Source: a virus
Taxonomy: Duplodnaviria; Heunggongvirae; Uroviricota; Caudoviricetes
IMG/VR virus record: IMGVR_UViG_2778261346_000006
Length of the DNA stretch: 12,266 nucleotides
Strand: one strand, 5' to 3'
Below are positions 1-3,000 of the stretch, piece after piece. How positions within the stretch are numbered: position 1 is the first letter of the stretch; every line of letters begins with the position of its first letter. The position numbers were made by a program.

Positions 1-3000
1 TGGCACACCGTTCACGCTGACGCAGTCACCGGTCAGTGCATTTGCGGCGGATAAACTGCATGTGACAGACATTACCAAAGGTGCGACTTACCCGGTGCTG
101 ATTGACAGCATTGCGGTGGAAGTGAACAACACAGACACTGCGGCATGATAAAAAAAACCGCCAGCGACAGGAATGGACGCTGGCGGTGGTAATACCTATG
201 GAGAAAAAATAAAGGAACGATACTTTCGTGCTCTGGTTTTTTAAATGAAAACAGTTCTTATTGTCAACAATAACGGAAAGAAATTATGACATTTCTGAAC
301 CAGTTAATGCTGTACTTCTGTACGGTGGTCTGTGTGCTGTATCTCCTTTCGGGTGGATACCGGGCCATGCGTGACTTCTGGCGCAGACAGATTGACAAAA
401 GGGCCGCTGAGAAAATCAGCGCCAGTCAGTCAGCCGGAAGCAAACCCGAAGAGCCGCTCATTTAGCGGCAACTTTCTTAATCACACCTTTCGACGAGAAA
501 ATCCCATGTCAGAAATTACATCCCTGGTCACTGCTGAGGCAGTGAAGGAAGTCCTGCGCTCTGAAGAAGTCCTGAGTGCACTGAAACAAAAACTTCGCCA
601 TAACCTGGAAGCGCGTCTTGATGCAGAAGTGGATGCCATTCTGGATGAACTGCTGGGCGCACCGGCAGCTCCGGAGCCGGAAGGTATCGCGGGTGAGGGG
701 AGTGCTTCAGATAGCGGTGACCCCACACCGGACAGCGACATGATGATGTAAGCATGCGTCAGGGACCATCGGTGTGTGCCGGTGGTCTTTTTTATTGTTG
801 TGAGCTTCCGGATTGCGGGAGACGGGGTATGTACCAGATGGAAAAAATCACAACAGGTGTGTCATACACCACGTCAGCGGTAGGGACGGGATACTGGTTA
901 CTGCAACTGCTGGACAAAGTCTCTCCGTCCCAGTGGGTGGCAATAGGTGTACTGGGGAGTCTGCTGTTTGGCCTGCTGACGTATCTGACTAACCTGTATT
1001 TCAAAATTAAAGAGGACCGTCGCAAGGCTGCCCGGGGAGATTAGGTGATGAACCATGAAGAAATGAATCAGCGCTTCAGTCGTCTGGAAAATGAAATTGC
1101 TGAACTGAATAAAAAACTGTCGGTGCTGATGCCTTCTGAAGATGCAAACAAACGCTGCGATGAGCAGTTTGCGGCGTTTTACGATGATTGTATCAAAATT
1201 GCTCGCAGGACCTTTGCGAATATTTTGCAGGAAAAGTTTTTACCGACCGCATTGTCAGAAAAGTACTCCATTACGGTTAAAAGTGCCGGAGAGGAAGGTA
1301 ATAAACGTTATTTTATTGCGTCTGCACCGGATAAAGACCAGGAATGGGAGTGTAATCGGCCATCCTTTGTTGTATCCGGTGATGACGGGAAAATCACCAT
1401 ATCAGAAAATGGAAAAGTAACACCGCCATCGCACCAGCACTGTGAGATGCTCATTGAATTTGCCATTGATTACCTGAAGAACAATAAAAAGCAAGGGCTG
1501 ATGAAGCGTATTGGTCGTTGCATGGGATATCTTCAGGTAACTGCTGAGATTGAAGCGCTGGCCTGTGGCGCAGACAGGGATACTGCGGTGCGGGAGGTCC
1601 TTCTTCGTGATTTCAATACTCCGCCCTTTAAGAAAGAGCCTGATGGCTGGATCCAGCCGGGGCTGAATTATCTCAAAGGGCGGATATAAGTTCAGGGGCG
1701 TTATCTGTTACCTGATAATTGTCTGAACAGGCGATCTTTTTGTGATTTGGCGTAATGATTATCCCATTCGCAATCAAGGTAACTTAATTCTTCATTTAAC
1801 CAGTCATCTATATTGTCTTTCAGGCGAAGGAGCAAGGTTGGTGTTAATGCTCCGGATATAATACTGAGAGTTGTAGTAGTGAGAGCTCCATACGGTTCAG
1901 CCTGAATGGCCTTTACTGCTTCGTGTTCTTGCGGGAGGAGTAAGAGGCATTCCGATTTTACCCGCTCATTTATGGCTTGCAGGAATAAATCATAATTATG
2001 TTGATGGTTATGCATGGTTAATCCTCGACTGGAATTGTCAGATATATTTTCAGCCAGCAGATAAAACGCCAGTGCCACCACTGGCGGGCTGAAAACTTAA
2101 CATATCCAGGGTTCTTGAACCGATAAATCCTGATAAATATCCATGAACGCAAAAATCAAATACGGCCTGTCAGCTGCCGTTCTGGCGCTGATTGCCGCAG
2201 GGGCTTCTGCGCCTGAAATCCTCGACCAGTTTCTGGATGAAAAGGAAGGTAACCACACCACGGCATACCGTGATGGTGCGGGTATCTGGACCATCTGTCG
2301 TGGTGCCATTCTGGTGGATGGTAAACCTGTTGTTCCTGGCATGAAGTTGTCGAAGGAAAAATGCGACCAGGTTAACGCCATTGAACGTGATAAGGCGCTG
2401 GCATGGGTGGAGAAAAACATCAAAGTGCCGCTGACCGAACCCCAGAAAGCGGGGATCGCGTCATTCTGTCCGTACAACATTGGTCCCGGTAAGTGTTTCC
2501 CGTCGACGTTTTACAGACGAATTAATGCAGGTGATCGAAAAGGTGCCTGCGAAGCGATTCGCTGGTGGATTAAGGACGGTGGCAGAGACTGCCGTATTCG
2601 TTCAAACAACTGTTACGGTCAGGTATCCCGTCGTGACCAGGAGAGCGCGCTGGCGTGCTGGGGAATCGACAGATAAGAAGAATATTTTGCTGAAAAATGA
2701 GGTTTGCTCACACGGACGGATAACACGAAATCCTGCGAACTGACAAAAACTAAGTGAATAAAAGTAAAAACCCCGTTTGTTGGCTGCAAGCGAGGTTTTG
2801 TGTTTCCTGACTCTGGAAAAGTCAAAGGAGAAAGTGTGTTTGATTTTAGCAAACTGATTCGGGAGATTCGAGTGATGGCTGAAAAATTATCTACCTGGAA
2901 GTTCATTCTTATCTGGCGGGTGTTTGTGATTATGGCCTCCGGTTATTTCATCGGTCAGATACGCTGGTGGTGAAATGAACCGCGTACTGTGCGTGGTCAT

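Follow-up and report, generated by a model that had tools for sequence, protein, structure and literature searches.

Two probably independent accessory modules between the holin and endolysin genes in the S21-type lysis cassette of a Caudoviricetes virus

Described systems and the analysed locus

Two groups of described genes stand closest to the locus reported here. The first is the YdfR family, whose DUF1327 proteins are encoded in a slot between the holin gene (S) and the endolysin gene (R), starting directly after the stop codon of an S21-type holin gene; in the Qin prophage of K-12 the slot has the order essQ-ydfR-rrrQ. The second is the morons of lambdoid phages. These genes, of which bor and lom of lambda are examples, have a transcription of their own and are inserted among the genes of the late operon, bor being oriented opposite to that operon. 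The locus analysed here is located in a stretch of 12,266 nucleotides (hereafter, the window) of the IMG/VR virus record IMGVR_UViG_2778261346_000006, where two convergent open reading frames (ORFs), ORF-A (1045..1689, + strand) and ORF-B (1701..2015, - strand), are found between an S21-type class II holin (pinholin) gene and the gene of an R21-like signal-anchor-release (SAR) endolysin. We consider that they probably represent two independent accessory modules lying side by side in a recombination hotspot of this cassette, ORF-A being a resident gene and ORF-B a moron-like one.

The sole experimental information on the YdfR family that we found is one report (PMC13232886, 2026), according to which the first 72 residues of K-12 YdfR mediate binding to the catalytic N-terminal half of RNase E, RNA co-purifies with YdfR, and a genetic screen tied ydfR to cell-envelope integrity. 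The region reported to bind RNase E, and perhaps RNA, corresponds to the DUF1327 domain, which is absent from ORF-A. Furthermore, K-12 YdfR (103 aa) lacks the conserved C-terminal domain of ORF-A, here called the D-module. Long forms of the YdfR family belong to the same phrog_1085 as ORF-A, and their coiled-coil and C-terminal domain together are homologous to the whole of ORF-A, whereas their DUF1327 domain is missing in it.

ORF-B resembles a moron in that it is a gene-sized indel between genes adjacent in relatives, has a lower G+C content, possesses a Shine-Dalgarno sequence and an upstream region of its own, and is opposite to the late operon, as is bor. It differs from morons in that no terminator follows it, its candidate promoter is weak, and its product is predicted to be cytoplasmic and not an envelope protein.

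Over positions 700-2800, the window shares 99.5% identity with two Shiga toxin (Stx) 2a-converting phages of strain 12E129, and over positions 1045-2142 its identity with a lambdoid prophage of E. coli O145 RM9154-C1 is 100%. An earlier note on this DNA had called the two genes as a convergent pair with 11 bp between the stop codons and a ribosome-binding site for each, and its coordinates, convergence, stop spacing, and both ribosome-binding sites are all present in the sequence. The gap between the stops (1690..1700) coincides with or adjoins the left end of the ORF-B cassette in our indel alignment (A3), and the terminator scan of the window gave no terminator-like hairpin in it. The distance from the S stop to the R start is 1,098 bp.

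ORF-A and the ydfR slot

ORF-A starts at GTG 1045 (214 aa) or at ATG 1048 (213 aa), the latter being the start used in GenBank records; its start abuts the holin stop, and a GGAG motif is located 8 nt 5' of ATG 1048, within the 3' end of the holin gene. The N-terminal part (1048..1335, + strand) is composed of a heptad or coiled-coil segment (about residues 3-27, with F10, L13, I17, L20, L24, and L27 as heptad residues) and a subsequent variable linker, and helices are predicted with low confidence at residues 3-26 and 32-63. The heptad pattern and the helix 3-26 agree with the coiled-coil-like N-terminus that had been noticed before. The structure model as a whole, with a predicted local distance difference test score (pLDDT) of 47.7, is unreliable and unusable, and nothing was found with it in the structure comparison. 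The remaining part (residues 97-213; 1336..1689, + strand) is the D-module, which is common to the long YdfR-family proteins. Its invariant or near-invariant residues in alignment A1 are H129, H131, G156, C158, Q163, E167, D178, and R212, and the "scattered Cys/His" of the earlier note correspond here to the conserved H129, H131, and C158.

ORF-A matched phrog_1085 with an E value of 5.6e-100 over profile positions 117-296 of 296, and no Pfam family, including PF07041 (DUF1327), was matched at E <= 0.1. Its homologues (n=137) are all from E. coli or Shigella where the source is named; the long ones (259-333 aa) have PF07041 at their N-terminus and are named "YdfR family protein". When compared with PF07041 proteins of 287-333 aa, ORF-A is 57-69% identical over 84-99% of its length, and its full length aligns with their C-terminal 60-70%. 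Four modules can be distinguished in alignment A1, namely DUF1327, a short coiled-coil, a variable linker, and the D-module, and ORF-A has all but DUF1327. These modules are shuffled among the relatives, making the region highly mosaic, and the resulting slot genes include DUF1327 alone (114 aa), DUF1327 with the coiled-coil (169 aa), DUF1327 with the D-module (268 aa, in phage 86), the full set of DUF1327, coiled-coil, and D-module (296-329 aa), and the coiled-coil with the D-module (185-217 aa), as in the window. The slot genes of loci L004-L007 match PF07041 at E values of 1e-34 to 1e-46. Short forms are common, with one protein cluster (P0001) on 203 contigs and another (P0019) on 100. Since ORF-A shares these modules and occupies the same slot as ydfR in K-12 Qin, the sequence comparison identifies it as a short isoform of the gene that commonly resides in the ydfR slot of lambdoid prophages of E. 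coli, and not as foreign cargo of an unfamiliar kind.

Judging from its substitution pattern, ORF-A is a real gene under purifying selection. The ratio of nonsynonymous to synonymous divergence (dN/dS) is 0.21-0.40 in the C-terminal 117 residues forming the D-module, at dS up to ~1.3, and the constraint is weaker in the N-terminal part (0.4-0.9). One might read the values reaching 0.7-0.9 in the N-terminal part, the absence of PF07041, and the highly mosaic character of the region as signs that ORF-A is a decaying, non-functional remnant of a long YdfR-family gene minus DUF1327, leaving ORF-B as the sole live gene. We consider this unlikely, because the D-module is constrained in the short forms too (dN/dS 0.26-0.29 between the window and L010 or L016), the start abutting the holin stop has been kept with its GGAG on the 5' side, and forms of 185-217 aa are present on hundreds of contigs.

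Two side observations on slot genes of this type may be recorded here. In the annotation by the Prokaryotic Genome Annotation Pipeline (PGAP), the slot gene is a partial pseudogene, "YdfR family protein, missing C-terminus", in L008 (1961-2854; ST131), L009, and L060 (O104:H4 2011C-3493). The idea suggested by these labels, that the A-type gene is often a pseudogene, was rejected: in L008 the ORF can be read without interruption over 296-297 codons, the D-module among them, and for L009 tblastn matched both halves of the A-type gene at the places of the intact gene of phage 86. The label thus looks like an annotation artefact affecting many genomes, as far as can be seen from the reading frames. 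In addition, the holin gene and ORF-A of the window share one reading frame (829-1689), in which TAG at 1042-1044 alone stands between them, and amber read-through of this TAG would yield a holin-ORF-A fusion; the shared frame is probably a coincidence, because the frames differ in ST131.

To see how the slot varies, 60 of the 367 phage records with this holin/endolysin pair were taken at even spacing, and the match spanned both genes in 51. The earlier note had taken S and R to be adjacent in phage 21 and had proposed a synteny comparison with related prophages. Adjacency holds for VT2-Sakai, with an S-R gap of 4 nt, and for 37 of the 51 sampled records, where the span from the holin start to the endolysin end is 750-754 bp and both ORF-A and ORF-B are missing. 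In 11 of the 51, a 114-aa DUF1327 gene is located between S and R (span of about 1,145-1,165 bp), and long variants including the window type (1,750-2,050 bp) account for the other three. A slot that is empty, filled with DUF1327, or long among relatives, together with a G+C content of 42-48% across both ORFs (1050-2100) against 50-61% in the endolysin and structural genes, accords well with the idea of accessory cargo in a hotspot.

The same variability bears on the possibility that one or both genes control lysis timing, coding for a cytoplasmic factor that resembles an antiholin or controls the endolysin, so that the S-R position itself would be functional. This would suit the location inside the lysis cassette, the start of ORF-A abutting the holin stop, and the link of ydfR to cell-envelope integrity in the genetic screen (PMC13232886). 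However, most relatives have no slot genes and lyse with S and R adjacent, so lysis itself needs neither ORF-A nor ORF-B; in addition, neither product has a transmembrane segment or similarity to lysis families of PHROG or Pfam, and genes of the B family are also found in a non-phage element. A role in lysis timing is therefore doubtful.

In a comparison of 5,426 complete E. coli genomes, 96 were found to have ORF-B (133 places), as against 787 with the D-module (970 places). With the window-type B, the order is S, A-type gene, B (reverse), and R at all 31 loci from IMG/VR and at every assembly locus, and near-identical copies of B are paired with different A mosaics. A branch of B with 52-56% identity is also present in the slot, accompanied by an A-type gene in L025 and without any trace of A in L019-L021 (P0162 cluster, 220 member sequences). 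These data are pertinent to the view that A and B form a coupled system (toxin-antitoxin, effector-immunity, or abortive infection) in which A is a late effector and B its prophage-made neutraliser. The tight convergence, the D-module gene adjoining every window-type B found, and the opposite expression phases predicted below would fit an effector and its immunity protein. On the other hand, the 787 genomes with the D-module against 96 with B and the B-family genes that lack A, both in the slot and in a context like an integrative and conjugative element (ICE), mean that A and B are not an obligate pair. Moreover, intact D-module genes without B are located directly beside R in TW14359, Stx2_95, and ST131, and neither protein matches PADLOC or a toxin or antitoxin family of Pfam. 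A coupled pair is thus very unlikely. The description as one two-gene insert has to be given up for the same locus data, since A is a variant of the resident ydfR-slot gene, B is an indel of its own of ~440 bp, the D-module occurs mostly without B, and B-family genes occur without A.

ORF-B, its cassette and the surrounding region

In TW14359, Stx2_95, and ST131, the stop of the D-module is followed by 36 bp and then by the endolysin ATG, whereas in the window, phage 86, and others these 36 bp are replaced by ~440 bp (~400 bp extra), consisting of the 315-bp ORF-B and a 127-bp spacer (alignment A3). By this comparison, ORF-B is a separate leftward cassette of ~440 bp between the ORF-A stop and the R start. 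Its Shine-Dalgarno sequence, GAGGA (2026..2022), is located 6 nt before the ATG. The spacer (2016..2142, - strand) extends from the start of ORF-B to that of the endolysin gene, is part of the cassette, and is missing from loci without B. Its mean column identity is 90% over eight loci with B coding sequences at a dS of 0.4-0.5 from that of the window, and it is better conserved than the synonymous sites of ORF-B.

A candidate sigma-70 promoter for ORF-B is located in the spacer (2099..2127, - strand), with TTTATC as -35 (2127..2122), 17 nt of separation, and TATGTT as -10 (2104..2099). The homologous site of L025, TTTACA-17-TATGTT, scores 9/12 and was called by the scan, and TATGTT is invariant in five diverged B cassettes (alignment A6). 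The predicted leader of ORF-B contains a two-tier inverted repeat (2047..2095, - strand; z-scores of -2.4 and -3.2), whose inner hairpin of 8 bp (2086..2067), rich in G+C, has TTTTAT behind it on the minus strand and, because of this T-run, looks like a terminator. Covariation gave no support for the leader hairpin, which is missing from the diverged B cassettes of L019 and L025, and the Rfam search of the spacer gave no family. On the 3' side of ORF-B, neither the 11-bp gap nor the sequence next to it contains a terminator-like site, the sole hairpin with a T-run being that on the 5' side of the gene. The earlier suggestion that the leftward gene can be expressed independently of late transcription is plausible on these grounds, namely its own Shine-Dalgarno sequence and a conserved spacer with a sigma-70-like element kept in position.

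ORF-B (104 aa) matched phrog_1853 with an E value of 1.3e-42. Every homologue compared has 104 codons without indels, and dN/dS is 0.24-0.49 at dS up to 0.57. An AlphaFold2 model gave a five-helix bundle with a mean pLDDT of 87.7. The protein is acidic (isoelectric point of 5.4, net charge of about -5) and hydrophilic; the grand average of hydropathy of ORF-A and ORF-B is -0.5 to -0.6, and no transmembrane segment is found in either. Selection and model together indicate that ORF-B is a real gene coding a folded protein. That it is a chance antisense open frame in non-coding filler is hardly credible, even though ORFs of ~100 codons on non-coding strands are common in the window and ORF-B has no family annotation, given its dN/dS, the absence of indels at dS ~0.5, the strong Shine-Dalgarno sequence, the confident fold, and homologues at 28-38% identity that keep the length, some in a different genomic context.

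An exhaustive search with hidden Markov models gave only 21 representatives for ORF-B, and with the patterns used no relative was found among the GTDB species representatives; a diverse ORF-B profile (A5) varied too much to serve in scans of loci. The O104:H4 2011 outbreak strain also has relatives of ORF-B. Distant homologues (32-38% identity, 99-105 aa) are found in an ICE-like element (L022, 4001-4300; L023; L024, 980-1297), which carries TraG_N and a paralogue of ribosomal protein L31, with an integrase in L022. There, a small multi-pass membrane protein is encoded 5' of the ORF-B homologue (217 aa in L024 and a 97-aa ORF in L022 and L023), and no relationship of this protein to ORF-A was detected.

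Two assignments were tried and rejected. The PerC/Pch proteins, prophage regulators of enterohaemorrhagic E. coli (EHEC), are like ORF-B in size (roughly 104 aa), in being helical, and in their location in lambdoid prophages near the lysis region, and a PerC gene is present in L021; Pfam PF06069 was not matched, and the hhalign probability was 0.3%. A weak match to RpiR (HTH_6) vanished when a more diverse profile was used, and no significant match to a helix-turn-helix domain in sequence or fold was obtained.

Neither ORF-A nor ORF-B had a match in PADLOC-DB 2.0 at E <= 1 or belonged to a lysis family of PHROG or Pfam or to a toxin or antitoxin family of Pfam. For both proteins, Pfam, NCBIfam, and PADLOC were uninformative, ORF-B matching nothing in any of them, and sequence searches of PDB with three profiles gave nothing; fold searches with ORF-B gave generic helical matches only. 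No structural or lysis protein came up in the homology and structure searches. The D-module and phrog_1853 are two uncharacterised domains without a Pfam family and are delimited here. A literature search by protein accession gave nothing on the ORF-A and ORF-B proteins, and the Stx-phage literature searched contained nothing on the S-R slot.

Other leftward genes have been found in the slot. An 86-aa gene of PhiR12_2 (phrog_2572) and a 233-codon ORF of Stx1_499 and Stx2_499 have the position and orientation of ORF-B and are convergent with a ydfR-type gene, and both are unrelated to ORF-B in sequence (hhalign probability <1%). The PhiR12_2 gene has no match in Pfam or PADLOC. The 233-codon reverse ORF is unannotated and is located between a ydfR-type gene and R (L007, 2726-3427, and L003, 2583-3284, both on the - strand); no match in Pfam, PADLOC, or PHROG was obtained for it. 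It overlaps the 3' part of an annotated + strand gene by ~250 nt, and ~100 aa of the + strand reading opposite to it recur in-frame in another A-type protein, P0079; either strand may code.

The gene order around the slot is DUF1378, DUF826, S21-type holin, ORF-A, ORF-B, SAR-type endolysin, Rz/Rz1, terminase, portal, and head genes. The holin gene at the left border (829..1044, + strand) matches PF04971 (E value of 8.5e-33) and the holin families phrog_20/9876, has a dual-start motif (M1/M4), and ends with TAG at 1042-1044. The endolysin gene at the right border (2143..2676, + strand; ATG 2143) matches PF00959 (E value of 1e-24) and phrog_7, and its N-terminus, as read from the sequence, is MNAKIKYGLSAAVLALIAAGASAP.

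Several observations concern the rest of the region. A strong terminator-like hairpin at 761-790 (+ strand; 13 pairs), followed by TTTTATTGTTG with a T-run to ~800, is located in the late operon just 5' of the holin gene; it would halt transcripts without Q antitermination before the lysis genes. Positions 150-226 (- strand) match the full model of the EHEC small RNA Esr41 (RF02676) weakly, at 30.9 bits (E value of 0.0044) against a gathering score of 102. The gap between the endolysin and Rz genes (2677-2974, 298 bp) contains no convincing ORF, and it looks like a second variable slot of the cassette, because ant, KilA-N, or small genes are present there in related phages. An IS110-family transposase gene between the endolysin and Rz1 genes of an ORF-B-bearing prophage (L013, 1787-2983) is a further sign of the plasticity of the lysis region.

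Proposed mechanism and meaning

The reading that we hold probable, with a resident A and a moron-like B as independent accessory modules, can be extended to expression and action. The anatomy of the locus, the purifying selection, the independence of the two genes, and the variability of the slot are established by the sequence comparisons, and from the sequences we infer promoter, timing, and molecular target. From the place of ORF-A in the late operon, immediately behind the holin stop, one would expect it to be co-produced with the lysis proteins, from the Q-antiterminated pR' transcript and as a soluble cytoplasmic protein; our best guess for its role is a late cytoplasmic accessory factor. 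ORF-B would be a self-contained leftward moron cassette, composed of the 127-bp spacer, Shine-Dalgarno sequence, and 104-codon ORF. Its transcription would start at the weak sigma-70-type promoter of the spacer and diverge from that of R, so that the ORF-B product would be made in the lysogen and as soon as the DNA has entered the cell. Because no terminator follows ORF-B, its transcript should continue antisense into ORF-A, and Q-antiterminated late transcription would collide head-on with it and silence ORF-B, placing A and B in opposite phases of the phage life cycle. As the ORF-B product is acidic and modelled as all-helical, without a transmembrane segment or a basic surface, its most likely target is a protein partner, and neither DNA nor the membrane.

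Several points weigh against this reading. The promoter-like site of the window scores 7/12 and is below the scan threshold, and the terminator-like hairpin between this site and the ORF-B start may mean low expression or a promoter located elsewhere. The proportions of the slot types come from a sample and not from a census, and window-type B was always found beside a D-module gene, which leaves room for a looser functional link between the two. For any specific function, the lack of homology to defence, toxin-antitoxin, lysis, or structural proteins in Pfam, NCBIfam, PADLOC, PHROG, PDB, and fold searches is likewise unfavourable.

A more far-reaching version, to which we give a low probability, is that the S-R junction is a dedicated landing site for leftward cargo expressed from the prophage, that ORF-B founds a new family of small acidic helical inhibitors of phages and ICEs, for instance in anti-defence or superinfection exclusion through binding of a protein of the host or of a phage, and that the D-module is an effector domain, tethered to RNase E by DUF1327 in the long forms. 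If this were true, ydfR-slot genes would reprogram host RNA decay at lysis and Shiga-toxin release.

With resident and moron-like modules as the probable reading, what had been described as an insert becomes one variant of the common ydfR-slot gene with an orphan moron beside it, and there is little likelihood of a coupled defence or toxin-antitoxin system. The S-R slot is an ordinary accessory-gene hotspot with orphan cargo, and its interest is modest unless the two genes prove to act in exclusion or anti-defence, on RNA decay, or on toxin release. Stx-converting and related prophages of pathogenic E. coli carry ORF-A and ORF-B in their late operon, and changes in lysis timing, late mRNA stability, or phage exclusion that arise at the S-R slot could alter toxin release and the spread of these prophages.

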